Shown: positions 2,956 through 63,132 of the stretch, in pieces
How the letters are laid out: the number at the start of each line of letters is the position of its first letter
Position numbering within the stretch: the first letter of the stretch is position 1
DNA from: Bacteroidota bacterium
GTDB taxonomy: Bacteria; Bacteroidota; Ignavibacteria; UBA10030; UBA8401
Reading direction: 5' to 3'
DNA: 64,000 nt
Assembly (NCBI GenBank): GCA_035500675.1
Contig: DATJXA010000032.1
Location: 1,021-65,020 of the forward strand
The notes under the pieces: model-generated
The model's database searches: none
The model's input: only the letters and a program-made list of their open reading frames with translations
What the model was told of the DNA's origin: nothing
Translations under genes and position numbers: made by a program

Positions 2956-4005
2956 TTATTTCACTACCGTGACAGCAACGTTATCCTTGAGATTGTTTTG
3001 ACCGCTCAACACCACTTGCTCACCCTCTTTCACCCCGGACAGGACTTCGAGATTTGTACCTACTTCAGCTCCAACAACCAGATCGCGTAGATGCGCAACG
3101 CCTTGATCCACCACAAACACTTGCGCGTTTTTCGTGCTGCCGAGAAGCGCTTCGCGGGGAATAGCAAGCACTTTGCCCGACGTTATAGAAATAAAAGAAA
3201 CGCGTCCAAACATCCCCGCCTTCAACGGATGAGTAGCATTATTCGCGAGTTTGATTTGAACCGGATATGTATGCGCTTCGTCCGCTTTATCGCTGATCGT
3301 TTCGATGGTTCCCCGGAACGTGATGCCCGGATAAACGTCGGTCGACACGTCGACAGGGTCGCCCACTTTCAATTTGAACGCGTCCTCTTCAGCGACATTG
3401 AGCTTCACTTTGAGCGTCGAGATATCGACAACATTCGCGATGACGTTATTCTTCTGCACCGTCGCTCCAACGCCCACCGGCCGCGACGTTACGATACCGG
3501 AAATCGGCGTCTTGATTTTTGCATCGTTGTATTGCCTCCGGGCGATGATGTACTGCGCTTCGGCAGATTGATAACCCAGTTTCGCGGTCTCGAGTTGGAT
3601 GTCTGAGACGGAGCCTTCTTTGAACATCTTTGTATACCGTTCGAGGTCCTTCTTCATTTTTTCATAGCTTACTTCCGCGGCGTCGTAATTTGCCTTCTTC
3701 ATTTCATCGTCTAACTGCACAAGCACCTCGCCGGCTTTGACATGGTCGCCGATCTCCACAAATACTTTTGTTACCCGTCCGTCCGTTTCGGAAAGAACGG
3801 CAACATCGTTATTCGCGGCGATCGTGCCGGTCAATGTAAAATCTTCCGAGAGTTGCTTTTTTTCCACGGTCGCGAGCGTGACGGGCAGAAACTTTGCAAT
3901 GTCGTTCTCCGATTTCGCTTGCATCTTCGATTTGTTGTTCAAGAGGACGGCAACGATCAGCGCCAGAACGATGATCGCGCCGGCGATAACTTTTGTCTTT
4001 TTCAT
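2956..4005 (-). CDS. RND efflux periplasmic adaptor (membrane fusion protein, HlyD/AcrA family)
   Basis: 349 aa with an N-terminal TM/signal segment, a coiled-coil hairpin and beta-barrel/lipoyl-like motifs (…PVTLATVEKKQLSEDFTLTGTI…). A GGAG-type RBS (aaagggagc) precedes the ATG. It lies between the tolC-like and RND genes. Confidence 0.9.
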   Translation of the reverse strand: MKKTKVIAGAIIVLALIVAVLLNNKSKMQAKSENDIAKFLPVTLATVEKKQLSEDFTLTGTIAANNDVAVLSETDGRVTKVFVEIGDHVKAGEVLVQLDDEMKKANYDAAEVSYEKMKKDLERYTKMFKEGSVSDIQLETAKLGYQSAEAQYIIARRQYNDAKIKTPISGIVTSRPVGVGATVQKNNVIANVVDISTLKVKLNVAEEDAFKLKVGDPVDVSTDVYPGITFRGTIETISDKADEAHTYPVQIKLANNATHPLKAGMFGRVSFISITSGKVLAIPREALLGSTKNAQVFVVDQGVAHLRDLVVGAEVGTNLEVLSGVKEGEQVVLSGQNNLKDNVAVTVVK

Positions 4006-4052
4006 ATTAAGCTCCCTTTAAGAGATAGATATAAATGGTCAAATCAAAATCG

Positions 4053-5378
4053 TTATTCACCGATCGCCCGTTCCAGCCCCGCTTCCGCAACCTCATAGTC
4101 GACGAGCGATTGAGTATAGTTCGTTTTGGCCTGCAGCAATGCGACCTCGGCGTCGAGCAGGTCCGTATTGAGCGCCAACCCTTGTTTAAATTTTGCATCG
4201 GTGACGCGGTAGTTTTCTTCCGCCTGGCTCACTTCTTTTTCGGCAACAATGATCCGCTCCTGCGCCCTGTGGAGGTTAAGGTAATTCCGCGTCACGTCCA
4301 ATGTCACGCCGTCCTTCAACTGCGCAAGGCCGTCTTCCGCTTGCGAGAGCTGCGCCTTCGCCTGGTCTGTCTGGTGAACCGTCGTTCCCCAATTCCAGAT
4401 GTCAAAGGAGACCCCTATCCCAACGTCCCACGTATCTTTAAAAACGTCCTCCGCCGGAAAAAATCTCTGGTTCGGGCGCGAGGAATAGTAATTCCCCGTA
4501 AAGTACACTTGCGGGAACCAATTCGACTGAGCGATCGCGACCGCGGCGTTTCCCGCTTTGACCTTATATTCCATCGATTTCAATTCTGGCCGCCGGTCCA
4601 TTGCTTGTTGAACAAGTGTAGTGAGGTCGCCAAAAGATTTTGGCTCATGTTTGATGTTGGTAACAGGGTCGACAGCTGTATCCAACGGAAGCCCCAGGAG
4701 ACTGTTAAAACTGATCTTTGCAAGTTGAACATTGTTCTTCATATCGATTTGGCGAAGCTCCGCATCTGAAAGCTGTACCTGGACTTTCAGCACGTCGTTT
4801 ACAGTGATCATCCCCTGACCTTGCCAGCTTTGGACGTCTTTAAGATGGGCTTCCATCTGTTCCACATTTTCATCGACAACTTTTTGGAGCTCGATGGCCT
4901 GAGTAAGGTTCCAGTACGCATTTTTGATATTGTAGATGAGATCGCTTTTATCTTTCTCAAAATCTTTTTGGGCTGAGCTCGCGTTATACTCTGCAATATC
5001 GGCGTTCCGCTGCAACTTGAAGCCGGTAAATATCGGCTGCTGCACTGTCACCTTGAGATTGTAATTGTTGACGACGGACGGAGAGAGTGTGATAGGGTCC
5101 GGAATAAGAGGATAGAGCGAAACCTGCGTCGGTGGAATATCGCTCAACCGTGCATACGCGCCGCTGAATTTTACGGACGGCAGCATCAATGCATTCGCCT
5201 CGCTCGATCTTGAATCTGCATACTGAACGCTCATGAGCGACGCATGGATCGATTTGCTTTTTTCCAGTCCGATTTGAATCGCCTGGTCAAGTGTAAGAGA
5301 CATTTTCTCTTCACCGCGAGCGGAGCCCGCAACCAAAAGCGATGTAATGACGAACAAGAATCTTATGCGGAACTTCAT
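4053..5378 (-). CDS. TolC-family outer-membrane efflux channel
   Basis: Signal peptide MKFRIRFLFVITSLLVAGSARG, followed by a repeated alpha-helical/beta-barrel TolC-like sequence with LTLDQAIQIGLEKSKSI… at the N-terminus. The ORF track starts at 5399 (MAEERVTMKF…), but the ATG at 5378 has a GGAGAGAG RBS and begins directly at the signal peptide. Confidence 0.85.
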   Translation of the reverse strand: MKFRIRFLFVITSLLVAGSARGEEKMSLTLDQAIQIGLEKSKSIHASLMSVQYADSRSSEANALMLPSVKFSGAYARLSDIPPTQVSLYPLIPDPITLSPSVVNNYNLKVTVQQPIFTGFKLQRNADIAEYNASSAQKDFEKDKSDLIYNIKNAYWNLTQAIELQKVVDENVEQMEAHLKDVQSWQGQGMITVNDVLKVQVQLSDAELRQIDMKNNVQLAKISFNSLLGLPLDTAVDPVTNIKHEPKSFGDLTTLVQQAMDRRPELKSMEYKVKAGNAAVAIAQSNWFPQVYFTGNYYSSRPNQRFFPAEDVFKDTWDVGIGVSFDIWNWGTTVHQTDQAKAQLSQAEDGLAQLKDGVTLDVTRNYLNLHRAQERIIVAEKEVSQAEENYRVTDAKFKQGLALNTDLLDAEVALLQAKTNYTQSLVDYEVAEAGLERAIGE

Positions 5379-5488
5379 TGTGACTCTCTCCTCAGCCATA
5401 GTATTGCGTGTACTTGTTTTTGTTCTGTGAGACGATTGTGACGGATAAATATTGTCGACCGATCGATGGCGTCATTTTTTGTAAACGA

Positions 5489-6160
5489 TCATGGGACTAG
5501 TTCATGAAAGCGGACTTTCGCGTCCTCGGTCATCATCGACTCGAGAATCATCGCGTTGGCTTTCCGAAAAGCAGCCTCGAGATCGATTCCCATGACGTCG
5601 TGCCAATATGTGTCTTCCCGGTCCATTTGGCGCATAAGGTGATTCGAACTTGCCCAGAGAATTACCGCTGCCTGTTTAGGGTCGATGTCGCGCTGTATCA
5701 CGCCTTCATCGATCCCTCGCTGGATAAGGTCGATCACAAGCTTCCAGACCTTCTGGTTTTCTCCGGAACACGATTGGAGCATCTCGGGAGATACTTGTTT
5801 ATGAAATTGAGGGTTCTCGAAAAAATAAAACATCCGAAAGTAATTGCGGTGCTCTTTGAAAAATTCGTAATATGCCTCACCCAGGTTTGCGATCGTCTTT
5901 AGAGTTGGGTGGTCTTTAGAAAGAACTTTTCCGAATATATCTGCAAGAACTTCGGTGCCTCGCAGCATCACGGCAAGGTATAAGTCTTCTTTGCTTTTGT
6001 AGTAGAGGTATAATGTTCCCTTGCTTAATTCTGCCGCCTCTGCGATTTCGTCCATTGTGGCAACTAATAGTCCTTTTTGAAAAAAGATCTTCTGGGCTGC
6101 ATCGATGATCTCTTCTCTTCTATGTTCTTTTTCGCGCTCTTTTCTCTCAGTAATTCCCAT
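5489..6160 (-). CDS. TetR/AcrR-family transcriptional repressor, the likely local regulator of the efflux operon
   Basis: N-terminal HTH IIDAAQKIFFQKGLLVATMDEIAEAAELSKGTLYLYYKSKEDLY is a classic TetR motif. It sits first in the minus-strand operon tetR-tolC-MFP-RND. The ORF track start at 6172 is a TTG; the ATG at 6160 has a GGAG upstream. Confidence 0.85.
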   Translation of the reverse strand: MGITERKEREKEHRREEIIDAAQKIFFQKGLLVATMDEIAEAAELSKGTLYLYYKSKEDLYLAVMLRGTEVLADIFGKVLSKDHPTLKTIANLGEAYYEFFKEHRNYFRMFYFFENPQFHKQVSPEMLQSCSGENQKVWKLVIDLIQRGIDEGVIQRDIDPKQAAVILWASSNHLMRQMDREDTYWHDVMGIDLEAAFRKANAMILESMMTEDAKVRFHELVP

Positions 6161-6201
6161 TATTGACTCCAATAAATTTAATAACTATAAGTCAGTAAAT
6201 T

Positions 6202-6413: not shown

Positions 6414-7685
6414 CTATTTGGGAACCGCGTCAACGTCAAATCGTACGGTCTTTTCCCATTTCCGCTGATCCTTGCTGACATAATCTGCATAGGCCGCTTT
6501 AATAACAATGTAGATCCAAAGCTGGCAATAAGAAAAATACATCAGGATAAGAAGTCCGATTCTTGGTAAGGTGTCTTCATTGTCATAGGAAATTGCCAGC
6601 ATGATCTCGAAGAGAAAAAGGAAAAACGCCATTATCCAGACGGTCGTATACGGACCCGGAAGAGAGATGCTGACAAGGCTCAGCCCGCTAAGAATAAAGA
6701 GAATGTCCGAAATGATGATCGCAGCAAAGAAAACATAATAGAGCGCTAAAGTGTAGAGGAGGTCGAACGCAAGACGTTTGTTTTTGAAGTTCGGGATGTG
6801 TCTCAAAAATTTTGAGACGACATAATTATTCCCGCGAACCCACCGCATGCGCTGTTTGATCCACACCTTCCATTCCTGGGGTTCCTGTTCGTATGTGATC
6901 GCGTAAGGAATATATTTGATCTTGTAGCCTGCTTCGTAAATGCGGATGCTCAGTTCTGAATCTTCCGTCAACGCTTCTTCATCCCACCCATTAAGCTGCT
7001 CAATGAGGGATCTCCAGATGACAAAATTCGTACCGGGAAGCGTAGCGATATTATGCATCTGCCAACGGCCCGCTTGAAGCATCGATTGGAAGCTCAACGT
7101 CTCGATGTTGATGAACCTCGTCAACAAATTGTGCGCTTTATTCACCGTTCTAAATTTTCCTATCACGGCGCCCAATTCTTTATGGAGCAACAATTGAGCG
7201 ACAAGGTAGCGGAGAGAATTTTCGTCGGGCGTATTGTCGGCGTCGAAGATCGCAATGACATCGGCTTTCACCTTTTTTACGCCGAGGTTCAAAGCCCGCG
7301 ATTTCCCCTTTCCACCCTCGCCTTTCGGCACGTCGAACAGCTGTACTCTTTTGTCCTGCTTGGCATATTTCCGGATGATCTCCTTTGTAGCGTCGGTCGA
7401 GCCGTCGTTGACAACAATGATGCGGAGTTTATTGCGCGGATAATTCAGCTTCAACATCGAGGCGATCGTGGCGCCGATAACTTTCTCTTCGTTGTGGGCA
7501 GGAATAAGTACCGCGCACGTGGGGAATTCAAAGCTCTCGCCGTCGACCTCGTTTTTTTCTTTCATCGACTTGACATAATTGATAAACCCGAACACGGTAA
7601 GGACAAACTGGTAGGCGATCATGAACCAGATAAGGATGACGGCGATGACGAACAAAAAACTGAGATCGACTTCGAGTACCGACAT
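6414..7685 (-). CDS. Membrane-embedded family-2 glycosyltransferase (PgaC/IcaA/BcsA-core-like processive polysaccharide synthase)
   Basis: 423 aa with two N-terminal TM helices (FLFVIAVILIWFMIAYQFVLTVFGFINYV). The GT2 catalytic core has a DxD (IFDADN), a TED motif and QRMRW (the QxxRW signature). Several C-terminal TM helices follow. Its start is 2 nt after the stop of the upstream 1317-aa gene. Confidence 0.85.
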   Translation of the reverse strand: MSVLEVDLSFLFVIAVILIWFMIAYQFVLTVFGFINYVKSMKEKNEVDGESFEFPTCAVLIPAHNEEKVIGATIASMLKLNYPRNKLRIIVVNDGSTDATKEIIRKYAKQDKRVQLFDVPKGEGGKGKSRALNLGVKKVKADVIAIFDADNTPDENSLRYLVAQLLLHKELGAVIGKFRTVNKAHNLLTRFINIETLSFQSMLQAGRWQMHNIATLPGTNFVIWRSLIEQLNGWDEEALTEDSELSIRIYEAGYKIKYIPYAITYEQEPQEWKVWIKQRMRWVRGNNYVVSKFLRHIPNFKNKRLAFDLLYTLALYYVFFAAIIISDILFILSGLSLVSISLPGPYTTVWIMAFFLFLFEIMLAISYDNEDTLPRIGLLILMYFSYCQLWIYIVIKAAYADYVSKDQRKWEKTVRFDVDAVPK

Positions 7686-7687
7686 AA

Positions 7688-10600
7688 TTAGGCAGCCTTT
7701 CTCGATGCATAATTGCGTTTGACGACTTTGAGCATGATGTACATCAAAAAGAGCGACGTCACCGCAAGGAAGCCAAAAATTACGATGGCGGTGGTTGACC
7801 AGAGGCTCGTCACATTAACGCCGAACGAAAACTGATCCCCGGCAGTGAGCTCGACGGCGTGCTGCCCAGGGGGTAAGAAAATGCTAAAGCAGTCGTTCCC
7901 CCTCATGACTGTGAACGGGTAGTCCTCTTGATCCACTGTAACCGAGGATGGGGCAACATTGAATGTGGCGATCGCGCGGGTGTCCGATTGGTATTCGAAG
8001 GTGATATCGCGCAGGCCGTGAGAAGACGAGAGTATGTTCCCCGTAAAGGACATGATCTTTGCCTGCAATTCATGGGTTGAAAACGTGTTTGCCGGCTTCC
8101 GGTCGAGCGTGATGTGGTGTTCTCCGGCCGGAATCATGTACGAATTCTCACCAAAGGGCGACAACGCGACGCCGTCGACATCGATTTCCGAAACTGTTTT
8201 CGGCATCCGGCATTCGACCGAGTACGGCGAGGTGAGCGTGTACCCGTCGTCCGTGTAGGTATAGTGGACACGCGCCGCGAGGGCGTTCGCAAAGAAGCTC
8301 ATATCCTGCGGGTTGACGCTCGACTCGGAATAGATCGTTACTCTCGGCGCGCCCAGCGCTGCGGCATTCACAAGATCGAAACTTTCTGTACCGGTTTGGA
8401 TCAGCGTCGGGAAAGGCGTGATGCTTTCCTTCTTCCGGAAACTGAGGATGTTGAGGTCGAGCGAAAGCTTGTCTTCGTCGCCGATCATGGACGCATATCG
8501 TTTTCCTATTTCAATGTACCTGCCGGGGTCGGTCGACCAGAGGTTTTCCGGGTCTTCAACCTGCAAAACAAAGCCGTATTTCTTCTGGAGTGCGATCACT
8601 TGCCCCATATCGACGCCAAGATATTCGCGTAACTCGGGCGATCCGTAACTGTCCATCGCAGTAACGATTGTCTGGAAGCCGGGCTTTCCGTGTGCAATAT
8701 CCGCGAAGGCCGTGAGAAATGTCTCATAAGCTTTCGTCAGTTGCTCCACCCGGTATTCGACGACTGCATTTTTTGCCGATGGATTGGTCTTCCAATAAAA
8801 AGGGGATTGCGGGTTGAAGATCGCTGCGAGGTCGAACCCGTATTTCTTCTTCACTTCTTTTTGGGCTGAGGGATGCATCGGAGCAAAGATGAGCGGATTG
8901 TCAAACCCTTTACCCGCTTCGAAGTAGAGTTCAGCAAGATTCACTCCGTCCCAATCGTATGCGTTGAGAATCTTCGTATACTCCTCGGTCATCGCCGCGA
9001 GACAGCTGTCGTCCTCCAACGCAACTGCGTACCTCCACATCGGAGGGATATCGTCGCCTTTATAGTTTTTCTCGCGCCACTGCGGATGTTCATCCCAGAA
9101 CTTTTTACTCACCTGGGGAGGCTCAAGCCATGCATAGACAAGCATGCCGTTCGCATGAGCAAGGGTAATGAGTCTCGTATAATCGTACGTATATTTGGGG
9201 AACTGATTCCATCCCGCGACGTGAACGACGCGGATCCCTTCCCTTGCCCACTGCTTGACGAGCGATTCGATGCTGTAGGTTTTGCGGAACCCCGGGTCGA
9301 AGTACATTTCAAGGTTCTCTCTCCGCACAATCGGCCTGAGGTGGAAATATTTCCTCACATACTCCAGCAAATACGGATACTGGCTGTAGCCGCCCTGAGA
9401 ATACGAATCGAAACGGGAATTGAAAAAAATGAGTTTGCCCTTCCCGACATTTTTTCCGATGACCATTGGAGTCTCCGTGACGTCATCCACACAGAATACC
9501 TCGTCGACGCCGTCGGTCTCGAATTTGCTCACGAGTTCGGGATAGCGCCAGACGATCCGCTCTTCCGGAAAATAACGGTCGCGTATCCTGCCGACACGGA
9601 CCCTCGTCTTGGTGAAACTGATGCCGAGCGCCTCCGCTAGGTCGTTCTTCGTGTCGGTGATAATATTTCCCCCATTTTGGACAAAGTCGCTGATGAGGTC
9701 GTAGTCGGTCTGCTTCAGCGAGTCGATGAATGCGTAGGGGGCGATGAGGAGGTTGTACCGCTTGAGGTCGATCGACTGCCCGACGAAAATCGTGTCGACC
9801 TGGATGTTGACGGAACGAAAGACGGATGCCAGCGACGATTCGTCGTGGAACGCTGCCCCTTTCACATGATGGTTCCAGAGGATCACGGGACGGATGTCGT
9901 TCCAGGCTTCGTCTTTCGCAAAAACATTGTCGTAAAATTTCTCTACGTTGTACGCCGTTTTTTCGAAAAAGGAGAGCGGGCGCTCGCGGAACTCGGTCGG
10001 CTCGGCTTTATAGACCTCGCCGGGCTCCAAGTCGATGTATTTGGTAAAAAGGCCTTTGATCCTGTGGTCCGAAACGGATTTACTTTTGATCTCCCCCGAG
10101 CGGTCAAAATAGGATTCGTAAAGATATTGGTCGTCGAGATGAAGGGTGTAACTCTGGCTCCCCGTAAGAATAATTCTGTCTTTCGTTTTGACCCAATTTT
10201 TCTGCTCGCCCAGATCGATGTATGTGTATCCGAGTTTTTGGATTCCGTCGACCAGTTGTTTAAGGAGGTCGAGGTCGAGAAACGGATGGAAGAAAACAGA
10301 GGCGAACCCGTCGCGGACATAGAGGTTCGTCTTTGCATTTTTGATGATGTTCCGGACGTACGCTTCGCTCTCGGCCTTGTTCGGGTTGAGCGGAACGTAC
10401 CCGAGGTTTTCCGGATAGATCTTTTGTCCGAAGAGGTCTTTATTGATGATATACGGAAAGTACTGGCTGTAATCGGCGTCTTCGATCGAGAGGCGCTGTT
10501 CCATCGCCGTGCTGAAATATTTTGAGATCGTGTTGTAGAACGTGAACGACGCGGTATAGTGGGGAGTCTCCCAGATAAGCGGCGAGAGGCCGTTCTTCAT

Positions 10601-11641
10601 AAATTCGGAGATCCCCATCTCGATCCGTTTTGCGTCCCCTTCTGCGGTCTCGTCCTTGATCGGCTTGTTTGTGCTTCCATCCCAGAATTCGAAATCGACG
10701 GCGGTCGTTCCTTTGTACTGATGGGTCACGCCGTGCATGACGATCGTCCCGCCGTTCTTCACCATATACTTGATCGCATCGACAAAATCCGGCTTATCGG
10801 ACAAACTGACGCGGATCCCTTCGGACGGGTCGACGTAGAACGGGATGACTCCGACAAGGAACGGGATCCCGCGCGACGAAAGAATGTCGGCAATGTCGCG
10901 GAGCCGGTCGGGGTCTTGCAACGGGTCGACATCCTCGATGCGGATAAGCGCCGAGTGCGATTCTTCATGCTGTTCGTGGAGAATGTCGTGGAGCATGTCG
11001 GCAAAAAGCAGGTACCGGTCGTTTTCGGTCGCAGACGCGAACGGCGAGTCGGCGATGTACATCAAATTTTTAGATTTAACGATATACGGAATTTCTCTCC
11101 TTGTCTTCGACGAGTATGCGACTGCAAGAACGTCGACGATTTTATGGTTCGTAATTTCGATGATATTGGCGTTCGGCTCCCCTTTCGTGAACACCTTGTT
11201 CCCCGATTTCACAAAATCGAAATTGTTGAGCGAGTCGAGCGTCGATACGATAAAGCCGAATTTCTTACGGAGGTCGTATGAGTGCGAGAACTCGATCATC
11301 CCGGTGTTCATCCAGATGACGGGGTGGTTCGTCATGAAGACGTCGTCCGTAAACCGTGAAGGTACCGGGTCGCGTCCGTTGAAACCGATGTAGAACGTGT
11401 AGTCAAAATTATTCAGCTCGCCCGGGAAATACTTGTTCACCCCTTTGAGCGTGACGGCCGTGTTGAAATGGCCCATGAGGTCTGCAAGCTGTCGCCCGTC
11501 TCCCATGGCGTAGTTTTTCAGCTCGGAATTGCCTTCGACGAGAATGAGAATTTTCTTGAGGGGATAGTCTTGGCCGGCGCTGGGGAACGAAAGGATTGCG
11601 ATCGATGTGAGGATGAACGCAAATCGAATATATTTCTTCAT
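7688..11641 (-). CDS. 1317-aa exported polysaccharide-modifying protein: DUF2334/CE4-like deacetylase-like domain, a putative TIM-barrel glycosidase-like region and a C-terminal single TM anchor
   Basis: Signal peptide MKKYIRFAFILTSIAILSFPSAGQ. A segment LIRIEDVDPLQDPDRL…VGVIPFYVDPSEG…MHGVTHQY resembles DUF2334/polysaccharide-deacetylase-like proteins. A central ~400-aa region (…VVHVAGWNQFPKYTYDY…LVYAWLEPPQ…DWDGVNLAELYFE…) has TIM-barrel hydrolase character. The C-terminal hydrophobic anchor is AIVIFGFLAVTSLFLMYIML. Functional assignment comes from motif recall, not a search. Confidence 0.5.
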   Translation of the reverse strand: MKKYIRFAFILTSIAILSFPSAGQDYPLKKILILVEGNSELKNYAMGDGRQLADLMGHFNTAVTLKGVNKYFPGELNNFDYTFYIGFNGRDPVPSRFTDDVFMTNHPVIWMNTGMIEFSHSYDLRKKFGFIVSTLDSLNNFDFVKSGNKVFTKGEPNANIIEITNHKIVDVLAVAYSSKTRREIPYIVKSKNLMYIADSPFASATENDRYLLFADMLHDILHEQHEESHSALIRIEDVDPLQDPDRLRDIADILSSRGIPFLVGVIPFYVDPSEGIRVSLSDKPDFVDAIKYMVKNGGTIVMHGVTHQYKGTTAVDFEFWDGSTNKPIKDETAEGDAKRIEMGISEFMKNGLSPLIWETPHYTASFTFYNTISKYFSTAMEQRLSIEDADYSQYFPYIINKDLFGQKIYPENLGYVPLNPNKAESEAYVRNIIKNAKTNLYVRDGFASVFFHPFLDLDLLKQLVDGIQKLGYTYIDLGEQKNWVKTKDRIILTGSQSYTLHLDDQYLYESYFDRSGEIKSKSVSDHRIKGLFTKYIDLEPGEVYKAEPTEFRERPLSFFEKTAYNVEKFYDNVFAKDEAWNDIRPVILWNHHVKGAAFHDESSLASVFRSVNIQVDTIFVGQSIDLKRYNLLIAPYAFIDSLKQTDYDLISDFVQNGGNIITDTKNDLAEALGISFTKTRVRVGRIRDRYFPEERIVWRYPELVSKFETDGVDEVFCVDDVTETPMVIGKNVGKGKLIFFNSRFDSYSQGGYSQYPYLLEYVRKYFHLRPIVRRENLEMYFDPGFRKTYSIESLVKQWAREGIRVVHVAGWNQFPKYTYDYTRLITLAHANGMLVYAWLEPPQVSKKFWDEHPQWREKNYKGDDIPPMWRYAVALEDDSCLAAMTEEYTKILNAYDWDGVNLAELYFEAGKGFDNPLIFAPMHPSAQKEVKKKYGFDLAAIFNPQSPFYWKTNPSAKNAVVEYRVEQLTKAYETFLTAFADIAHGKPGFQTIVTAMDSYGSPELREYLGVDMGQVIALQKKYGFVLQVEDPENLWSTDPGRYIEIGKRYASMIGDEDKLSLDLNILSFRKKESITPFPTLIQTGTESFDLVNAAALGAPRVTIYSESSVNPQDMSFFANALAARVHYTYTDDGYTLTSPYSVECRMPKTVSEIDVDGVALSPFGENSYMIPAGEHHITLDRKPANTFSTHELQAKIMSFTGNILSSSHGLRDITFEYQSDTRAIATFNVAPSSVTVDQEDYPFTVMRGNDCFSIFLPPGQHAVELTAGDQFSFGVNVTSLWSTTAIVIFGFLAVTSLFLMYIMLKVVKRNYASRKAA

Positions 11642-11652
11642 CTTTTGTGAAA

Positions 11653-12804
11653 TTACCGTGGTCTGAATTCGCGAATAATGCTTCGAGAGTAACCGAAATA
11701 TTTTTTTATGATGGCGACCGTCCTTTGCGCGGCGCGGCCGTCGCCGTAAGGGTTCGTTGCAGAGGCCATTGCCGCGTACGCCGCTTTGTTCTCGATGAGT
11801 TTCTTTGCCGCATCCAGTATTTTCTTTTTGTCGAGACCGACAAGTTTAACGGTGCCGAAGTCGACGGCCTCGGGCCTCTCGGTGACCTCCCGCAACACGA
11901 GAATCGGTTTTCCGAGGGACGGGCCTTCTTCCTGAACTCCTCCCGAATCGGTGATGATGAGAAACGACCGCGCCATGAGGTTCACAAAGTCCAAATAATC
12001 GAGCGGCTCGATGAGAAAAACATTGCTCATGGATCCGAGGACGCCGTAAACGACCTCACGCACGCGCGGGTTAAGGTGAACGGGAAAAATAAAATTCATC
12101 CCGCGGTATCGTGCGGCAAGCTCTTTGACCGCCTCGCATGCATTGCGCATCGGCTCGCCCCAGTTTTCACGCCGATGCATCGTGAGAAGAACTATCCGTT
12201 TGTTTTCTGCGGTGAGACGGTTCAACGTATGAATGCCGAAGGCATATTTTTTTTTGACGGAGAGCTTTAACGCGTCGATAACGGAGTTCCCCGTCACGTA
12301 CACTCTCGAACGGTCGACGTGTTCGTGAAGCAGCGCTTTCCGCGCTGTGTCAGTCGGAGCAAAATGGATGTCCGCGATGCAGCTCGTGAGCCGCCGGTTG
12401 ATCTCCTCAGGAAAAGGGTTCGCTTTATCGTGCGTGCGCAAGCCGGCTTCAACATGCCCGACCGGGATCTGCCTGTAGAATGCGGCAAGACCTCCGACGA
12501 ACGTCGTCGTCGTATCCCCCTGCACAAGGACGAGGTCCGGCAATTCTTTTTGAAGCACCTCATCGAGCGCGACGATGGTGTTCTGCGTCAACGTTGCGAG
12601 GGACTGCTTCGGCTGCATGATATTTAAATCATAATCCGGCGCGATGTCAAAGACGTCGAGCACCTGGTCGAGCATATGGCGATGCTGGGCCGTCGCGATT
12701 GTCACAATGGTGAAAAATCTTTTCTCCCTTCTCAATGCGAGAATGATCGGGGCAAGTTTGATAGTGTCGGGGCGCGTCCCAAAAATGACGGCGATCTTCT
12801 TCAA
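11653..12804 (-). CDS. wecB: UDP-N-acetylglucosamine 2-epimerase (non-hydrolysing)
   Basis: 383 aa beginning MKKIAVIFGTRPDTIKLAPII, with …HVEAGLRT…, …TDSGGVQEE… and …NPYGDG… signature stretches. It lies 11 nt upstream of the 1317-aa gene. Confidence 0.92.
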   Translation of the reverse strand: MKKIAVIFGTRPDTIKLAPIILALRREKRFFTIVTIATAQHRHMLDQVLDVFDIAPDYDLNIMQPKQSLATLTQNTIVALDEVLQKELPDLVLVQGDTTTTFVGGLAAFYRQIPVGHVEAGLRTHDKANPFPEEINRRLTSCIADIHFAPTDTARKALLHEHVDRSRVYVTGNSVIDALKLSVKKKYAFGIHTLNRLTAENKRIVLLTMHRRENWGEPMRNACEAVKELAARYRGMNFIFPVHLNPRVREVVYGVLGSMSNVFLIEPLDYLDFVNLMARSFLIITDSGGVQEEGPSLGKPILVLREVTERPEAVDFGTVKLVGLDKKKILDAAKKLIENKAAYAAMASATNPYGDGRAAQRTVAIIKKYFGYSRSIIREFRPR

Positions 12805-13119: not shown

Positions 13120-14589
13120 ATGAATCCAACACTCGAAAAAATCGCCAAGCATCTTCGCAATGCGGAAGATTTTATCCGCTCGCGGCGTTATTCGGAAGCG
13201 ATGATCGAAGTCGAGTACATCTTCCAGATCGACCCGAAAAATTATCAGGGACGTACGCTTCAAGAACGAATTCGCTCGCTGCAGAAAAAGGAAGAGGATG
13301 CGGCAAAAAATCCCGTCGTGACCACACTTTCTCGAGAAGGCATCTACCGACATCTGAGACTTGCCGAAGAGCATTATCTTGGCGGGCGTTACGACGAAGC
13401 GCTCATCGAAACAGAACGGGTGCTCCAGAGCGACGCCGATAATTATCAGGCCCGGTCGATGATGGATCGGATCCACGCGGGGCAGAAAAAAATGGAATCC
13501 GTTCTTCAGCAGCGGAACCAAACGCAAGCGCTCTCGCTGGACAGAAGGATCCAATTAATCTCTCAGTTCCTGAAGGAAGCGGACAAGTTCATTCAGCAAC
13601 AGGAGTACCGTCTGGCGCTGGAACAGGTCGCAAAGGTCTTCAACCTTGATCCGACGAATCATTTTGCGCAGGCATACTCGCAGAGCATCGAAATGATGAT
13701 GAAGAAGCCGCCTGCGCCAAAGGTTGCACCTCATCCACAGCCGCCTCGTCCGGCTGCGGCGGCTCCTCCTCCAACACCGCCTCAACCTCCAAAAGCTCCA
13801 GACACACCCGCACCTCCGCCGGTAGCACAGCCGCAAGCGGCGCCACCGCCAATCCCGGCTCCTCCACCGAAGCCGCTCCCGCAGGAAGCTCCCGCGGATT
13901 TGGACGGAAGAGTAAAGATGTACCGCGAGATCCTCAACGAAATGTGGTTTGACGGCATGCTTTCGGAAAAAGAAATTGCCGAATTGAAAAAAGTACGGAG
14001 TCTATTCAACATCACCGACGAACAGCACGCTCAACTCGAAAAGGAGATCAAGACCGAGGCGTACGTCGAAGCTCTTCGTATCGTCTTGCACGACGGCGTC
14101 GTGAGCCAGAACGAGGAACGTGTCCTTGAACTGATGCGCAAGCGTTACGGCATTACGATGGACGAACACAACAGTGCTCAGGCGAAAATTCTCGAAGCAA
14201 AACGCGCGCCGTCGTCCGCCCAATCGCTTCTTATTGTGGATGATGAAAGAACGATCCTCTTGACGTACGCGGCCATCCTTCGGAGACACGGATATATGGT
14301 GTTTACCGCCGAGACGATACACGACGCGATGGTGATCCTCGAGAAACAAACTCCCGACCTTATTCTGTCCGACGTCATGTTCCCCTCGCCGACAGAAGGC
14401 GGCTTTGAGTTTTATAACCAGATTCGGAATAATGCCCGTTTCAACAAAGTCCCGTTTCTTCTCATGTCGGGAATCGACGATGAATTCGTCGTACGCGCCG
14501 GTATGAGGCTGGGCATCGACGGCTATCTCACCAAGCCGTTTGATAACGAACTGCTCCTTGCAACAATCGAGGGGAAACTGAAGCGCTAG
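13120..14589 (+). CDS. Atypical response regulator: three ~55-aa TPR-like repeats, a Pro-rich linker, a TerB/DjlA-N-like helical region and a C-terminal receiver (REC) domain
   Basis: Repeats of the form …HLRxAExxxxxxRYxEAxIExExxxQxDxxNYQxR…. The linker is PAPKVAPHPQPPRPAAAAPPPTPPQPPKAPDTPAPPP…. The REC domain is LLIVDDERTILLTYAAILRRHGYMVFTAE…DLILSDVMFP…LTKPF, with a phospho-acceptor Asp present and no DNA-binding output domain. It is transcribed divergently from wecB. Confidence 0.7.
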   Translation: MNPTLEKIAKHLRNAEDFIRSRRYSEAMIEVEYIFQIDPKNYQGRTLQERIRSLQKKEEDAAKNPVVTTLSREGIYRHLRLAEEHYLGGRYDEALIETERVLQSDADNYQARSMMDRIHAGQKKMESVLQQRNQTQALSLDRRIQLISQFLKEADKFIQQQEYRLALEQVAKVFNLDPTNHFAQAYSQSIEMMMKKPPAPKVAPHPQPPRPAAAAPPPTPPQPPKAPDTPAPPPVAQPQAAPPPIPAPPPKPLPQEAPADLDGRVKMYREILNEMWFDGMLSEKEIAELKKVRSLFNITDEQHAQLEKEIKTEAYVEALRIVLHDGVVSQNEERVLELMRKRYGITMDEHNSAQAKILEAKRAPSSAQSLLIVDDERTILLTYAAILRRHGYMVFTAETIHDAMVILEKQTPDLILSDVMFPSPTEGGFEFYNQIRNNARFNKVPFLLMSGIDDEFVVRAGMRLGIDGYLTKPFDNELLLATIEGKLKR

Positions 14590-14661
14590 GCCGTCCTTCA
14601 CGCTTCGGTATTGACCTGCTTTAAACCGCTAGCTGTTTTCCACAATCATCAGGGGGGCCTC

Positions 14662-17600
14662 ATGATCCGCAAAGCGTTGTACTCGGCTGTATTGTTTTCC
14701 CTTTTATTTCCTCTCTCTTTACGCTCGCAGAATATGTCGTTTCCGTATGTCGAGCAATTTGACACTGTTTCTGCGCCGGGTTTGCCGACGGGATGGATTT
14801 CAACGACGAATAAATCTGCCTCCGGTGATTTTGTCATTTCGTCCTCGACTCCGTACAGCAGTCCGAACGATGTCGTCACGACCGATGCAAAGGTCGCTCA
14901 AAGTCTCCTCTCGCCGCAAATCGATTTCACCAGAATGATCGTTGGGTCGCTCGAGTACCGTGAGCGGCGGACATCATCCCATAATTCGGGGTTGATCGTT
15001 GAAGCGGTGCTCGATAACGATACTTCTTCCGCTATCGTTTTGGGCGATACGCTGAAAAATCCGGGAAGCACAAGTTACGTCCTCCGGAGCTTCACACTGC
15101 CGCAATCCCTGAATGGCCGTCCAAACGTGCGCTTCCGTTGGCGCGTGGTGGGAAACGGAACCGGATCGACGGGAACATTGCGTATCGATGATGTAGAGAT
15201 CACGGTTCAAAAACAGCGCGACCTTGCGATCACAGCTCTTCAGCTCCAGCCCGCAACGGTCCGAAGCGGACAAACTGTGACGGTCTTTGTCGGCGTCTCC
15301 AACCGGGCGCTTGGCGGTACTTTTTCATTCTCCGTTCAACTATTCGACGATAAGGATGTGGATTTACCCGGTGCGTCGGCAAAAAAAGTCGATGAGTTGG
15401 ATATCGTCCGCATCTTTGCCGCCGCGGAATCGACCACGTTTACACTCAACTATCCTAACGTCGCTCCGGGAAGTCACCGCCTGATCGTTCAACTAAATTT
15501 TGCCGGGGATGAGGATACGACGAATAACACCGCCGCAAAAACAATTCTCGTCGGTTATTCTCCGCGTTCAGTGCTTATCAACGAAATAATGTTCGCTCCG
15601 ACCGCGGGCCCTGAGTGGGTTGAGTATATCAACAACTCTTCAGATTCAATCCCGCTTGCGCAATGGAAGATGGGAGACAACTCGGGCACGCGAGCGACGC
15701 TCACTTCGCAATCCATACAAATCCCACCCAAGCAATTCTTCATCGTTGCCAAAGACACCTCCATCTTTTCGGCATTTCCGTCTATTATATGCCCGGTTGT
15801 CGCTGCGTCATTTCCGGCATTGAATAACGACGGAGATGCCGTCGTTGTCGAAGACCCTGCCGGGTTCACGATCGACAGCGTCGCGTACTCATCCGCATGG
15901 GGAGGCACAGGAGGGAGGTCGCTCGAAAGAATCGATACGGCAGACGCTTCGAACTCTCCATCCAATTGGGGAAGTTCACGCAGCACTTACGGCGCAACGC
16001 CGGGACGCATCAATAGCCTGACGAAAAAAGAGTACGATGTATCGGTCTCAGGGATTTCTTTATCTAATCCGCAGCTCGATATCGGCCAAGCGTTTCAAGT
16101 CACCGCGACAATTAAGAACGTCGGACGCGAACCTTTGTCTGCGATCTCGGCGCAGTTCTTTCTGGATGAGAACAACGATTCGATCCCTCAATCCGACGAA
16201 TTGGTTGGGCAGAACACGATCAACCAGCTCATGCCCGCGGATTCGCAGGCCGTTTTACAAACGCTGAAACTGACCTCACAAGGAAAACACCGGATCATTG
16301 CCGTTGCCGGCGTTGAACGTGACGATGATTCTTCAAACAACAGCGTGGCGATCTCGTTTGAGACGGGCATTGCGTCCCATTCCATGATCATCAATGAAAT
16401 TATGTACGCGCCGCCCGGAAATATGCCCGAATGGATCGAGCTCTATAACGCCGATACGATTGCCGTTGACCTTGCAGGATGGAAGGTATCCGATTCAAAC
16501 ATAAAGTCCAGGGCGTCCGTGACAGGCCGCCAAACAAAGGTCGGCCCGGGCAGTTATTGTGTGGTGAGTTCCGATTCAACGCTCGGAAATTTTTATTCGG
16601 TGACCGTCCCGCTTCTTGTTTCATCCTTCCCGGCGCTTAACAACAGCACGGCCGACGCGGTTGTTCTCTACGACGACCGTGGACTGACCATCGATAGCGT
16701 GTGGTACAAACCATCGTGGGGCGGATCGAACGGCCGATCACTGGAGCGTGTAGACTATCTTGCCTCATCGGTCGATTCATCAAATTGGAGGAATTCTCCG
16801 CCGACGCCGGGGGCCGAAAACAGCGTTGCGAAGAAAAATTTCGACCTCGAGGTCGCGAGCTTTGACGGAGTGTTGAATCAACATGGGTTGTATTTATCCG
16901 CAACAGTCCATAATGCGGGAAGAAAGCCCGCAACGGCGTTCCGCGTTCAATTTTTCCTCGACCGTAACCGGGATCATACCGGTTCGCCGGAAGAATTATT
17001 GTATAGCGTCGATGAGCCGATGCTCGCATCTGGAGATTCACTCACGGTCGAATACGAATGGCGATCTGAGGTTGAAGGCGCGATCCCTTTTGTGTGCGTT
17101 GTAGATTTTCCGGAGGATGAACGGCCGTCAAACAACATAAAAAACGGATTGTTCTCAAACAGTTTTATGCCGCAATCGGTTATCATCAACGAAATAATGT
17201 ACGACCCGCTCCCCGGCCGATCGGAATTCGTTGAACTCTTCAACCGGAGCGGCGATACGCTCGACCTTCAGGGCTGGAAAATGATGGACACGCCGACGAG
17301 CTCCGGCAACAGAACGGTCACACGGATTGCAGATACGTCTTTTCTTTTGCGGCCTGGGGAGTTCCTTGTCATCGGAGCCGATTCGACGCTCTTGATTCAA
17401 TTTCCAAACCTTTCCAGCCTTCCCGATGGCAAAGTAATTATTGCCGGCAGTGATCTCTCCTTGAATAATTCAGGCGATGATATTATTCTCGTCGATTTGA
17501 CGGGAACGAAAATCGACAGTGTGCGATATTCGCCGTCGTGGCACAACCCGGGTCTTCATATTTCAACTTCCGGCAAATCGCTCGAGCGGATCAATCCTTC

Positions 17601-18021
17601 TCTCGGAAGCAACGACCGTCAAAATTGGAGCACTTCGATCGCCTCACAGGGCGGGACTCCGGGGGAACAAAATAGCATTTACACGAACGTTATTCCTTCG
17701 ACAGCACAGCTTCGTCTGTCTCCGAACCCTTTTTCCCCGGACGGTGACGGCGTTGAGGATTTTCTTTCTGTCGCGTATGCCCTTCCCATGACAGTATCGA
17801 TGATCCGCGTTCGATGCTTCGACGTCCAGGGACGGCTGGTAAGAACGCTTGCCAACAATGAACCCGCCGCCGCAACGGGAACTATTCTCTGGGACGGACT
17901 GGACGATGCTCAGCGGCGCGTGAGAATCGGGATGTATATTATTCTTTTCGAGGCGCTCGATCAGAACGGAGGCGTTCTGAGAACGATGAAAGATGTTGCC
18001 GTCGTCGCACGGAAATTATAA
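14662..18021 (+). CDS. Large secreted protein with three lamin-tail-domain (LTD) repeats interleaved with CARDB-like Ig modules and a C-terminal FlgD-Ig/gliding-CTD-like domain
   Basis: The ORF track begins at 14611, but a signal peptide (MIRKALYSAVLFSLLFPLSLRSQ) starts at 14662 after a G-rich RBS. The LTD signature (V/M)xINEIM(Y/F)xP…EW(I/V)ELxN…(L/I)xGWK appears three times. It alternates with …NNDGDAVV…IDSVxYSxSWGG…GRSLERID… blocks and CARDB-like 'DLAITALQLQP…GQTVTV' modules. The C-terminus is SPNPFSPDGDGVEDF…. Confidence 0.7.
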   Translation: MIRKALYSAVLFSLLFPLSLRSQNMSFPYVEQFDTVSAPGLPTGWISTTNKSASGDFVISSSTPYSSPNDVVTTDAKVAQSLLSPQIDFTRMIVGSLEYRERRTSSHNSGLIVEAVLDNDTSSAIVLGDTLKNPGSTSYVLRSFTLPQSLNGRPNVRFRWRVVGNGTGSTGTLRIDDVEITVQKQRDLAITALQLQPATVRSGQTVTVFVGVSNRALGGTFSFSVQLFDDKDVDLPGASAKKVDELDIVRIFAAAESTTFTLNYPNVAPGSHRLIVQLNFAGDEDTTNNTAAKTILVGYSPRSVLINEIMFAPTAGPEWVEYINNSSDSIPLAQWKMGDNSGTRATLTSQSIQIPPKQFFIVAKDTSIFSAFPSIICPVVAASFPALNNDGDAVVVEDPAGFTIDSVAYSSAWGGTGGRSLERIDTADASNSPSNWGSSRSTYGATPGRINSLTKKEYDVSVSGISLSNPQLDIGQAFQVTATIKNVGREPLSAISAQFFLDENNDSIPQSDELVGQNTINQLMPADSQAVLQTLKLTSQGKHRIIAVAGVERDDDSSNNSVAISFETGIASHSMIINEIMYAPPGNMPEWIELYNADTIAVDLAGWKVSDSNIKSRASVTGRQTKVGPGSYCVVSSDSTLGNFYSVTVPLLVSSFPALNNSTADAVVLYDDRGLTIDSVWYKPSWGGSNGRSLERVDYLASSVDSSNWRNSPPTPGAENSVAKKNFDLEVASFDGVLNQHGLYLSATVHNAGRKPATAFRVQFFLDRNRDHTGSPEELLYSVDEPMLASGDSLTVEYEWRSEVEGAIPFVCVVDFPEDERPSNNIKNGLFSNSFMPQSVIINEIMYDPLPGRSEFVELFNRSGDTLDLQGWKMMDTPTSSGNRTVTRIADTSFLLRPGEFLVIGADSTLLIQFPNLSSLPDGKVIIAGSDLSLNNSGDDIILVDLTGTKIDSVRYSPSWHNPGLHISTSGKSLERINPSLGSNDRQNWSTSIASQGGTPGEQNSIYTNVIPSTAQLRLSPNPFSPDGDGVEDFLSVAYALPMTVSMIRVRCFDVQGRLVRTLANNEPAAATGTILWDGLDDAQRRVRIGMYIILFEALDQNGGVLRTMKDVAVVARKL

Positions 18022-21011: not shown

Positions 21012-21012
21012 C

Positions 21013-21822
21013 ATGACGACCGAAAAGCCCATCGGCGTCTTCGATTCGGGGATCGGAGGACTCACCGTCGTGCGCGCTCTTTTACAGCGCCTGCCGCACG
21101 AGAATATCGTGTACTTCGGCGACACGGCACGCGTGCCCTACGGTCCCAAATCGCCTCAGGTCGTCCGCGAGTATGCAAAGGACGACGCGGAGTTCCTTCT
21201 TTCGAAAAACGTGAAGATGATCGTCGTCGCCTGCAACACCGTGTCGGCGGTCGCTCTCGACGTCGTGCAGAAGCAGGCGGACATTCCCGTCGTCGGCGTC
21301 ATCGTGCCGGGGGCGAAAGCCGCGATGGCTGCGTCGAAGAAAAAGCGGATCGGCGTCGTCGGTACCGTCGGCACAATTTCAAGCAGCGCGTATGCCAACG
21401 CGCTGAGGCAGATCGACGACGAGGCAACCGTGTTTAGCCGGCCCTGCCCTCTTTTTGTTCCTCTTGTGGAGGAGGGCTGGATCGATCACAAAGCGACAGA
21501 GATGATCGCCAAAGAATATCTCTTTCCGTTCATCGGCGAAAAGATCGACACGCTTGTTCTCGGCTGCACGCATTATCCCCTCCTTAAGAACGTCATTTCG
21601 CGCGCATTAAAAGGCGGAGTGACGCTCATCGATTCCGGCGAAGCGACGGCGATAGAGGTGCAGAATGTCCTTGAGGAACGCTGCCTTAAAAATCCGAGCA
21701 GGGAAAAGCCGAACTTACAATTTTTCGTCAGCGATATTCCGTCGAAGTTTTCGGAGATCGGCGAGCGATTCCTGGGGTCGAAAATGGGGGTAGTCAAAAA
21801 GGTCGGCGTGGGGAGGTCGTAA
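21013..21822 (+). CDS. murI: Glutamate racemase
   Basis: MTTEKPIGVFDSGIGGLTVV…MIVVACNTVSA…LVLGCTHYPLL… are the classic MurI motifs. The track ORF 20410-21822 is an upstream read-through of the same frame; the true ATG is at 21013, 1 nt after the glnD stop. Confidence 0.9.
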   Translation: MTTEKPIGVFDSGIGGLTVVRALLQRLPHENIVYFGDTARVPYGPKSPQVVREYAKDDAEFLLSKNVKMIVVACNTVSAVALDVVQKQADIPVVGVIVPGAKAAMAASKKKRIGVVGTVGTISSSAYANALRQIDDEATVFSRPCPLFVPLVEEGWIDHKATEMIAKEYLFPFIGEKIDTLVLGCTHYPLLKNVISRALKGGVTLIDSGEATAIEVQNVLEERCLKNPSREKPNLQFFVSDIPSKFSEIGERFLGSKMGVVKKVGVGRS

Positions 21823-24413: not shown

Positions 24414-25174
24414 AGGGAGTCCTTATTCTCTCCCTCGTATTGCTTTCAAGCTGTGCTCCTACCAAAGAACTCCGTAAACCCGCCATCAGCAGATCGGCGC
24501 GGGAAGTTATCGACGCCGTCAACAACAACCGCTACGCGGTCTCAACGTTCGACGCAAAAGGCTCGATCTCCGTCGAAACGCCTTCCTTTATGAATTCCGG
24601 TTCGTTCGAGCTGTGGCTGAAAAGGCCCGATTCCGTCCGCGTAGACGTTGAAGGTCCCTTCGGAATCCATGTGGCCTCCGCGCTGTTTGCACATGACCGG
24701 TATGTATTCTATAATAGCTTTAAGAATGAGGTGATGGAAGGGAAGTTCGACGTCCGGAATATGCCTGACTTTATGAACATCCGCCTCGATCCCTCAGACA
24801 TCGTGGATACCTTCTGCGGCACGAGGCGTTTTTTGCCCGACGAATCGCTGCCCGATAGCTTTTCCATCGACCGCGATTCATACATGCTTCTCTTCCGGCA
24901 CGACAACGGCACAACGCGGTACCGCGTCGACGGCGAAAATTTACGCATTACGAGCGTCGAGCATATCGACTTCACCGGCAATGTGTGGAGCGAAGAACAT
25001 TTCGAGTTTGAGAAGGATGGCAACGGCGCCGTCGTCCCGGAATCGATCGAACTCAATGAGGTGTCCGCCCAATCGTCCGTTTCGCTCTTTTACGACAAGG
25101 TCCACATCAACAAGCCCGTCAGCGCCATGGTGCTCGACGTGCCTGCGGACGCTCAACGCATCACCAGAAAATAA
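24410..25174 (+). CDS. DUF4292-like (LolA-fold) outer-membrane lipoprotein
   Basis: MKGVLILSLVLLSSCAPTKEL… with a lipobox. The protein is about 255 aa. The track ORF at 24341 is an in-frame upstream extension. Confidence 0.55.
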   Translation: MKGVLILSLVLLSSCAPTKELRKPAISRSAREVIDAVNNNRYAVSTFDAKGSISVETPSFMNSGSFELWLKRPDSVRVDVEGPFGIHVASALFAHDRYVFYNSFKNEVMEGKFDVRNMPDFMNIRLDPSDIVDTFCGTRRFLPDESLPDSFSIDRDSYMLLFRHDNGTTRYRVDGENLRITSVEHIDFTGNVWSEEHFEFEKDGNGAVVPESIELNEVSAQSSVSLFYDKVHINKPVSAMVLDVPADAQRITRK

Positions 25175-62998: not shown

Positions 62999-63010
62999 GG
63001 AAGAAAGTGA

Positions 63011-63119
63011 AAAGTGCAAAGGGCAAAATTACAATTAAAATTGGAAAATTATTTTCACTGTAGAATTGGCACAGGTTAAAATTTTTAACTTTACACTGTA
63101 ACTTTGCCCTTTGCACTTT
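63011..63119. repeat. 17-bp inverted repeat (AAAGTGCAAAGGGCAAA … TTTGCCCTTTGCACTTT) with an AT-rich ~75-nt spacer, between the methyltransferase stop and the nfo start
   Basis: Read directly from the sequence. The left arm lies 13-29 nt upstream of the nfo ATG at 62998 and overlaps the alternative TTG at 63019. Confidence 0.7.
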
Positions 63120-63132
63120 AACCTTTAAACTG

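Follow-up and report, generated by a model that had tools for sequence, protein, structure and literature searches.

Which polysaccharide is made by an operon that pairs a membrane synthase with an exported protein of 1317 aa, and how does the operon relate to the export systems already described? The question is raised by positions 6,414 to 12,804 of a 64,000-nt stretch (hereafter the window) of contig DATJXA010000032.1, from a Bacteroidota genome of the class Ignavibacteria. Here wecB, the gene of the 1317-aa protein (hereafter the giant protein) and a gene for a family 2 glycosyltransferase (GT2) follow one another. To our knowledge, the characterised synthase-dependent exopolysaccharide (EPS) systems are a handful: cellulose, poly-N-acetylglucosamine (PNAG), alginate, Pel, Pss/Yda and Nfr. 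We consider it probable that the operon is a minimal synthase-dependent pathway for an exopolysaccharide containing N-acetylmannosamine (ManNAc), which is deacetylated and trimmed, and that it is a diderm relative of the Yda system of Bacillus subtilis (YdaJKLMN) and the Pss system of Listeria monocytogenes (PssA-E and PssZ).

The synthase and its Bacillales relatives

The Yda and Pss systems have as their common core an exported DUF2334 protein (YdaL-type, COG5298) and a membrane GT2 of about 420 aa, and the window operon likewise holds an exported DUF2334 protein beside a GT2. The 423-aa enzyme carries the motifs DAD148, TED240 and QRMRW278, with one hydrophobic, putative transmembrane (TM) segment at the N-terminus and about three to four at the C-terminus. 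This agrees with the first-pass annotation, which had described a membrane GT2 with DxD, TED and QRMRW motifs. In Pfam it matched Glyco_tranf_2_3 and Glyco_trans_2_3. The top NCBIfam model was PgaC_IcaA (TIGR03937, an equivalog), with 161.3 bits and hence below the cut-off of 422.3; further models were the mycofactocin-associated MftF (98 bits), CelA (94 bits) and NodC (86 bits). The closest match among PDB sequences was BcsA (E 3e-18). With PgaC_IcaA and BcsA as its best models, the GT2 does not group with non-processive enzymes of the dolichyl-phosphate type.

The GT2 was found to be 45% identical over 408 aa to a GT2 of Salibacterium salarium (E 8e-127) and 42% identical over its full length to one of Oceanobacillus iheyensis (E 1e-112), against 26% over 320 aa for E. 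coli PgaC (E 2e-29). The Salibacterium gene lies in a cluster of DUF2334 ('YdaL'), GT2, WecB and a GH8 glycoside hydrolase (GH), and the Oceanobacillus gene in a cluster of two DUF2334 genes, GT2 and GH8. These gene contents agree with B. subtilis ydaJ(GH)-K-L-M-N and with Listeria pss. Further, the Salibacterium GT2 family shows 68-80% identity across Bacillaceae, which is consistent with YdaM, reported as highly conserved (PMC13274460). By sequence the window GT2 belongs with the processive-type synthases, and it appears to be closer to the YdaM/PssC kind than to PgaC itself. The earlier assignment to a PgaC/IcaA/BcsA-type core thus holds for the processive class and fails for likeness to PgaC itself, in identity as well as in bit score.

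The same numbers bear on a different explanation, namely that the operon makes a PNAG-type polymer of beta-1,6-linked N-acetylglucosamine (GlcNAc), with the GT2 as a PgaC/IcaA orthologue, the giant protein as a PgaB analogue and wecB serving some other pathway. The rank of PgaC_IcaA as top model speaks for it, whereas the low score of that model and the greater identity to the YdaM-type enzymes speak against it. A small PgaD-like open reading frame (ORF) was looked for downstream of the GT2 and none was found.

Two other assignments of the synthase were considered and dropped. An Nfr-type synthase was ruled out, the similarity to E. coli NfrB not being significant (E 0.01). The GT2s of plasmids from B. 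tropicus and Streptomyces were rejected as close kin: they are 26% identical to the window GT2, fall in a separate clade and have an XrtP-associated glycosyltransferase as their top model.

Domains of the giant protein

The giant protein has a signal-peptide-like N-terminus, a single TM segment by hydropathy (residues 1279-1308) and a K/R-rich tail, and these features imply a predominantly periplasmic body with a predicted C-terminal anchor, as the single-pass anchor noticed earlier had suggested. In Pfam, DUF2334 (PF10096) was matched at aa 231-466 with 174 bits and GH42M weakly at aa 608-662, and Polysacc_deac_1 (PF01522) was not matched. A DUF2334/CE4-like domain had been proposed from the string 'IRIEDVDP...HGVTHQY', whose parts 'RIEDV' and 'HGVTHQY' are at residues 234 and 303; the Pfam search confirms its DUF2334 identity, and a recognised deacetylase family or a firm hydrolase assignment did not come out of it. 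The NCBIfam models and phmmer against PDB sequences gave no match to the giant protein, a profile search gave marginal GH36 and GH42M matches only, and BLASTP showed no significant similarity to PgaB or YbcH of E. coli. The segments of the protein are listed in Table 1.

Table 1. Genes of the operon and segments of the giant protein, by position in the window
Feature	Position	Strand	Description
GT2 synthase gene	6414..7685	minus	423 aa, ATG start
Giant-protein gene	7688..11641	minus	1317 aa, ATG start
wecB	11653..12804	minus	383 aa, TTG start, GGAG 7 nt upstream
Giant protein aa 1-233	10943..11641	minus	Signal peptide and GATase1/ThuA-like (GIFT-like) alpha/beta domain with beta subdomain
Giant protein aa 234-481	10199..10942	minus	DUF2334, CE4-fold metal-dependent (de-N-acetylase-like) catalytic domain
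Giant protein aa 482-585	9887..10198	minus	Beta-sandwich and linker helix, end of the YdaL-like half; from the secondary structure of the model
Giant protein aa 586-1266	7844..9886	minus	Second GATase1-like domain (GH42M/DUF4350-like), putative GH153/GHL-type (beta/alpha)8 barrel, two beta-sandwiches
Giant protein aa 1267-1317 and stop	7688..7843	minus	Single TM helix at about aa 1279-1308, short K/R-rich cytoplasmic tail

AlphaFold models built on diverse alignments reached a pLDDT of 93 for aa 1-600 and a pLDDT of 96 with a pTM of 0.93 for aa 575-1317, and the C-terminal anchor was modelled as one long helix (model residues 696-742). Comparison of the structure models gave values of 14.4 for PelA and 13.8 for Agd3. 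The DUF2334 domain has the features of carbohydrate esterase family 4 (CE4), that is a distorted (beta/alpha) barrel with an Asp-His-His metal triad and catalytic base and acid residues. When the giant protein was aligned with five standalone DUF2334 proteins from four phyla, residues R234, E236, D237, H303, H307, Q308, E318, P360, H361, Y362, E411 and H452 were invariant. These residues reproduce the CE4 logic: the ED pair is 'TFDD'-like, and there are an HxxxH pair and a late His.

The central region, for which a TIM-barrel glycosidase had been suggested, was modelled as a barrel putatively of GH153/GHL type, and its top structural match was the GH153 domain of PgaB. By GH153 we mean a PgaB-like (beta/alpha)8 barrel in which the catalytic Asp (D474 in Bordetella, D466 in E. 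coli) ends a 'DG...HD' strand. Both the match of the barrel and the combination of deacetylase and hydrolase, as in PgaB, are what a PNAG-type system would lead one to expect. On the other hand, the deacetylase domain is DUF2334 and not the Polysacc_deac_1 of PgaB and IcaB, and sequence comparison of the giant protein with PgaB gave nothing significant.

Burkholderia, Ralstonia, Bacillus, Salibacterium and Oceanobacillus have standalone DUF2334 proteins (550-580 aa) that are 27-31% identical to aa ~20-510 of the giant protein. The alignments are about 460-530 aa long, the standalone proteins stop near giant aa 482-585, and both NCBI and JGI name such homologues 'YdaL'. An exhaustive search with aa 470-1317 as query brought up three architectures: full-length giant-like proteins, the most distant at 28% identity; numerous standalone proteins, about 700-730 aa long and corresponding to giant aa ~585-1265; and homologues of about 1650-1700 aa with an additional N-terminal GHL6/GHL10 domain. 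Since both units also exist as standalone proteins, the giant protein is a fusion, in which a YdaL-type unit is joined to a hydrolase-like module known to occur independently and to a TM anchor.

Among the standalone copies of the hydrolase-like C-module (GATase1-like/DUF4350 domain and GHL barrel, about 720 aa, L031-type), one at L010:1666-3792 lies near a giant protein and GT2 pair, and the one at the P0155 locus has no GT2 nearby. This distribution suggests that the module is an enzyme family of its own.

The first-pass annotation had also compared the topology of the giant protein with that of BcsB. The likeness to BcsA-BcsB extends to a processive GT2 and a large periplasmic partner with one C-terminal TM helix, whereas the window pair lacks PilZ and its giant protein carries enzyme domains, with no match to BcsB in sequence or fold, the periplasmic domains of PF03170 included. 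A fusion of YdaL with the BcsB-like YdaN was likewise ruled out, as the C-terminal half is a GH-type TIM-barrel module. We consider it very improbable that the giant protein serves chiefly as a scaffold or translocation partner of the BcsB kind, without catalysis and with degenerate enzyme-like domains.

The wecB linkage and the polymer

The first gene of the operon had been annotated as wecB. Its product scored 494.6 bits with TIGR00236, above the equivalog cut-off of 210.15, and 402 bits with Pfam Epimerase_2, and is by these models a bona fide non-hydrolysing UDP-GlcNAc 2-epimerase.

To see how the three genes are kept together we used a scan of 185,579 species-representative genomes, of which 441 had the DUF2334 signature motif. 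The locus counts given here rest on the best 80 of these 441 genomes, all of them Ignavibacteriota/Bacteroidota-type metagenome-assembled genomes, a few with other labels; 64 loci were assessable for the GT2 and 74 for wecB. The GT2 gene lies directly downstream of the giant-protein gene in 61 of the 64, and distant giant proteins (28-36% identity) adjoin GT2s that are 48-51% identical to the window GT2. At one locus (L096) the two genes are adjacent in reversed order. Since it recurs across related genomes, the arrangement is not a product of chance.

Directly upstream of the giant-protein gene, wecB was found at about 40-42 of the 74 assessable loci (~55%), and at two distant loci (L008 and L009) it belongs to the cluster from a downstream position. 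It is an accessory, often-linked first gene of the operon. Three loci (L002:10001-15127, L039:6843-11969 and L043:3136-8178) have WecB and the giant protein in a single ORF of about 1680-1708 aa that lacks a start codon where the two are joined. A plausible layout for these fusions is a cytoplasmic epimerase, the former signal peptide as a TM segment, and the enzyme domains in the periplasm. The recurrent linkage and the in-frame fusions strengthen the suggestion, already made from WecB, of a ManNAc-containing polymer, and they are hard to account for if the product is PNAG.

The association is also seen outside this group of genomes. By tblastn we found plasmid contexts, among them a megaplasmid of Ralstonia solanacearum (L092; CP047137.1, 676786-693628) that carries an nfrB-like glycosyltransferase gene (with MshEN), nfrA, wecB, a small ORF, a gene for a 578-aa DUF2334 protein and a 299-aa ORF. 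This DUF2334 protein is 31% identical to the N-terminal half of the giant protein and its gene is present in 136 Ralstonia plasmid records. The cluster suggests that in Ralstonia a DUF2334 enzyme acts on the counterpart of the glycan that phage N4 uses as receptor. On a plasmid of Streptomyces sp. NBC_01237 (L097; 91389-108213) the DUF2334 gene is divergent from GT2-wecB-GH16, and on the B. tropicus plasmid an insertion sequence element lies between GT2 and DUF2334. With Salibacterium included, the linkage of DUF2334 with WecB spans four phyla and three types of glycosyltransferase.

The Listeria Pss polymer has the structure [-4)-beta-ManNAc-(1-4)-[alpha-Gal-(1-6)]-beta-ManNAc-(1-] (PMC13492145), and the Nfr glycan of E. 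coli needs WecB/UDP-ManNAc (PMC8669472). These glycan data and the linkage in four phyla are most simply explained if DUF2334 enzymes have polymers containing ManNAc as their substrates and such a polymer is the product of the window operon.

In such a pathway, WecB would convert UDP-GlcNAc to UDP-ManNAc in the cytoplasm, and the 423-aa GT2 would polymerise the sugar and pass the chain into the periplasm by way of a transmembrane channel of its own. The giant protein would be tethered beside the synthase by its C-terminal TM helix, with two catalytic domains acting on the emerging chain: the CE4-fold DUF2334 domain would strip some of the N-acetyl groups and the GH153/PgaB-like barrel would cleave or trim the polymer. 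The fused barrel would stand in for the GH8 of the Bacillales (YdaJ/PssZ), for PgaB of the PNAG system and for PelA of the Pel system, and the TM-anchored body of the giant protein may also replace the BcsB-like YdaN/PssD.

Comparison with the known systems places the operon closest to Yda/Pss. Like those systems it pairs its synthase with a dedicated, here predicted, glycoside hydrolase, and the ManNAc-based product of Listeria (PMC13492145) fits its wecB linkage. It differs in its diderm host, in carrying the YdaL-like unit within one 1317-aa protein together with a GH153-like module and a TM anchor, and in having wecB inside the operon. Further, a GH8 (YdaJ/PssZ), a BcsB-like YdaN/PssD and the degenerate-GGDEF c-di-GMP receptor YdaK/PssE were all absent from the operon and from the scanned ORFs of the window. 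Compared with the modifier of PNAG systems (PgaABCD/IcaADBC), the giant protein is extended by a TM anchor and two GATase1-like domains, and the linkage with wecB suggests a polymer of ManNAc instead of GlcNAc. PelA and the fungal Agd3 differ from it in domain order and accessory domains; PelA is moreover soluble or PelB-associated and not TM-anchored, and PelF of the Pel system is a cytoplasmic GT4 and not a membrane GT2. The Nfr system (E. coli NfrB-NfrA-YbcH, N4 glycan receptor) shares with the operon a synthase-dependent glycan requiring WecB/UDP-ManNAc (PMC8669472). In contrast to it, the window GT2 has neither significant similarity to NfrB nor the MshEN c-di-GMP domain, no NfrA-like ORF was found in the window, and the giant protein has no significant similarity to YbcH.

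It should be noted that several points weigh against a deacetylated ManNAc polymer of Yda/Pss kinship. The Pfam scans covered 38 larger ORFs of the window; those of about 200-330 aa at 946-2834, 24341-25174, 26633-27637 and 62123-63948 fell outside them. No PgaA/BcsC/PelB-like porin and no GGDEF, EAL or PilZ domain was found in the 38 scanned ORFs, small ORFs of PilZ size not being systematically covered. This bears out the earlier remark that porin, PilZ/PgaD and c-di-GMP elements are missing, and with no porin in the window the export of a polymer from a diderm cell is unexplained. The link to B. subtilis YdaL/YdaM and Listeria PssB/PssC is drawn only through Bacillales homologues (for the GT2, the Salibacterium and Oceanobacillus enzymes) and through database names. 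The catalytic Asp of PgaB maps to E904 of the giant protein in an hhalign match of only 10.6% probability. About 45% of the related loci have no adjacent wecB, and ManNAc as universal substrate is therefore unproven. Literature searches on DUF2334, or on YdaL with 'deacetylase', gave nothing relevant, DUF2334 being mentioned only incidentally, and we know of no biochemical data for any DUF2334 protein or for diderm members of this GT2 clade. Finally, the published structure of Listeria Pss shows acetylated ManNAc (PMC13492145), which leaves the role of DUF2334 as a de-N-acetylase unproven.

For a PNAG-type polymer the absence of a porin is one more difficulty, as neither PgaA nor PgaD was found, and together with the wecB linkage and the sequence comparisons it makes us regard this explanation as unlikely. 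It would on the other hand be accounted for if the product is not secreted at all and is a periplasmic or cell-envelope glycan, or short oligosaccharides freed by the fused hydrolase. Most related loci show no conserved porin either, the hydrolase module is permanently tethered beside the synthase, and standalone copies of the module exist without any GT2. Against a retained product stands a conserved protein of about 447 aa with a signal peptide, ending in ...IGIGF, which is encoded directly after the GT2 at 22 of 63 related loci (e.g. L041:13204-14547 and L077:13372-14715). This protein has no match in Pfam or the PDB and no similarity to PgaA or NfrA, and is a candidate for a novel outer-membrane barrel serving export. 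At 14 of the 22 loci (e.g. L067:14491-16650) the next gene is for a BNR/Ycf48-type propeller that ends in a sorting tail of the type IX secretion system (T9SS); the window holds a homologue of neither. The homologous Gram-positive systems, further, yield a surface EPS (PMC13492145, PMC13274460). Taken together we find a non-secreted product quite unlikely.

The secreted, ManNAc-containing polymer remains our preferred explanation, and an extension of it can be offered tentatively, as something possible that we would not yet bet on. Here DUF2334 would be a new carbohydrate-esterase family for ManNAc polymers (a poly-ManNAc de-N-acetylase), the giant protein and the GT2 would form a self-sufficient two-protein machine, and Pss, Yda and the Streptomyces, Ralstonia Nfr-type and Ignavibacteria loci would make up one class of ManNAc exopolysaccharides that crosses phyla and has gone largely unrecognised. 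If so, one polypeptide would combine deacetylase, hydrolase and BcsB/PgaD-like membrane partner, and the polymer would leave the cell without a dedicated porin of the PgaA/BcsC type, or through the ~447-aa barrel of the sister lineages.

New here are the fused 1317-aa deacetylase/hydrolase-like protein with its anchor, the hosts, diderm bacteria of the FCB (Fibrobacteres-Chlorobi-Bacteroidetes) group, and the cross-phylum association of DUF2334 with WecB. The general kind was already known, namely synthase-dependent EPS production that has a modifier like PgaB or PelA and is related to Pss/Yda. The operon had been introduced as an undescribed variant of such systems, which is right for the architecture and has to be qualified by the existence of a studied Yda/Pss relative. 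The little-studied Pss/Yda-type core of DUF2334 and GT2 would reach diderm FCB-group bacteria, which are abundant in soils and sediments, and would there have been rebuilt into a module of two or three genes that includes an unusual fused deacetylase/hydrolase/anchor protein. DUF2334 gains a concrete and testable hypothesis for its function, the modification of ManNAc-containing polymers, on the basis of its independent wecB linkage in four phyla. If true, this would aid the annotation of thousands of genes labelled only 'DUF2334', be relevant to YdaL/PssB, whose roles in the biofilms of Bacillus and Listeria are unexplained, and add a PgaB/PelA-like enzyme scaffold as a potential biofilm-degrading tool.

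Genomic setting of the operon

The three minus-strand genes are separated by 11 nt between wecB and the giant-protein gene (11642-11652) and by 2 nt between the latter and the GT2 gene (7686-7687), in exact agreement with the ORF coordinates and spacers reported at first. The window has a GC content of about 52%, its composition is unbroken across the operon, and several metagenome contigs hold identical copies of the locus. In scans for promoters and terminators, sites were no more numerous than in shuffled sequence.

Just downstream of the GT2 lies an efflux operon on the minus strand (2956-6172) with a TetR regulator, a TolC-like OEP and an HlyD-type membrane-fusion protein. These genes are not conserved beside the operon among the 80 related loci. 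On the other side, at 13120-14589 on the plus strand, a 489-aa response regulator is encoded. Its TPR-like repeats at the N-terminus are followed by a long linker rich in Pro and Ala, by helical repeats and, at the C-terminus, by a REC domain; the Pfam scan recognised no output domain. The first-pass annotation had counted this divergent gene as part of the system. It adjoins the operon in the closest clade only (8 of 80 loci), and therefore lies outside the conserved system.

A second membrane GT2 of 501 aa is encoded at 42230-43735 (plus strand) and matched Glyco_tranf_2_3 and Glyco_trans_2_3. Its top NCBIfam models were CelA (114 bits) and PgaC_IcaA (104 bits), both far under the cut-off. 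The gene is followed by one for a 312-aa TPR protein (43799-44737, plus) and has a SPOR-domain gene (39667-40464) and a sigma-54 activator gene (40466-41644) upstream; the region may be a second, unrelated synthase-type polysaccharide locus of the window.

The window further encodes a large secreted protein with three Lamin-tail domains and CARDB (14611-18021, plus), a secreted S8 subtilase with Por_Secre_tail (27714-29804, plus) and a secreted 1122-aa protein with FlgD_ig and Por_Secre_tail (30063-33431, plus). The last two have C-terminal T9SS sorting domains, which indicates that the host belongs to the FCB group and possesses type IX secretion. Finally, the ORFs for a GlnD-like uridylyltransferase (18366-21011, plus, 881 aa) and an Asp/Glu racemase-family protein (20410-21822, plus, 470 aa) overlap by about 600 nt. 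As the racemase domain begins only at aa 222, the start of the latter ORF was probably over-extended by the mechanical ORF caller.

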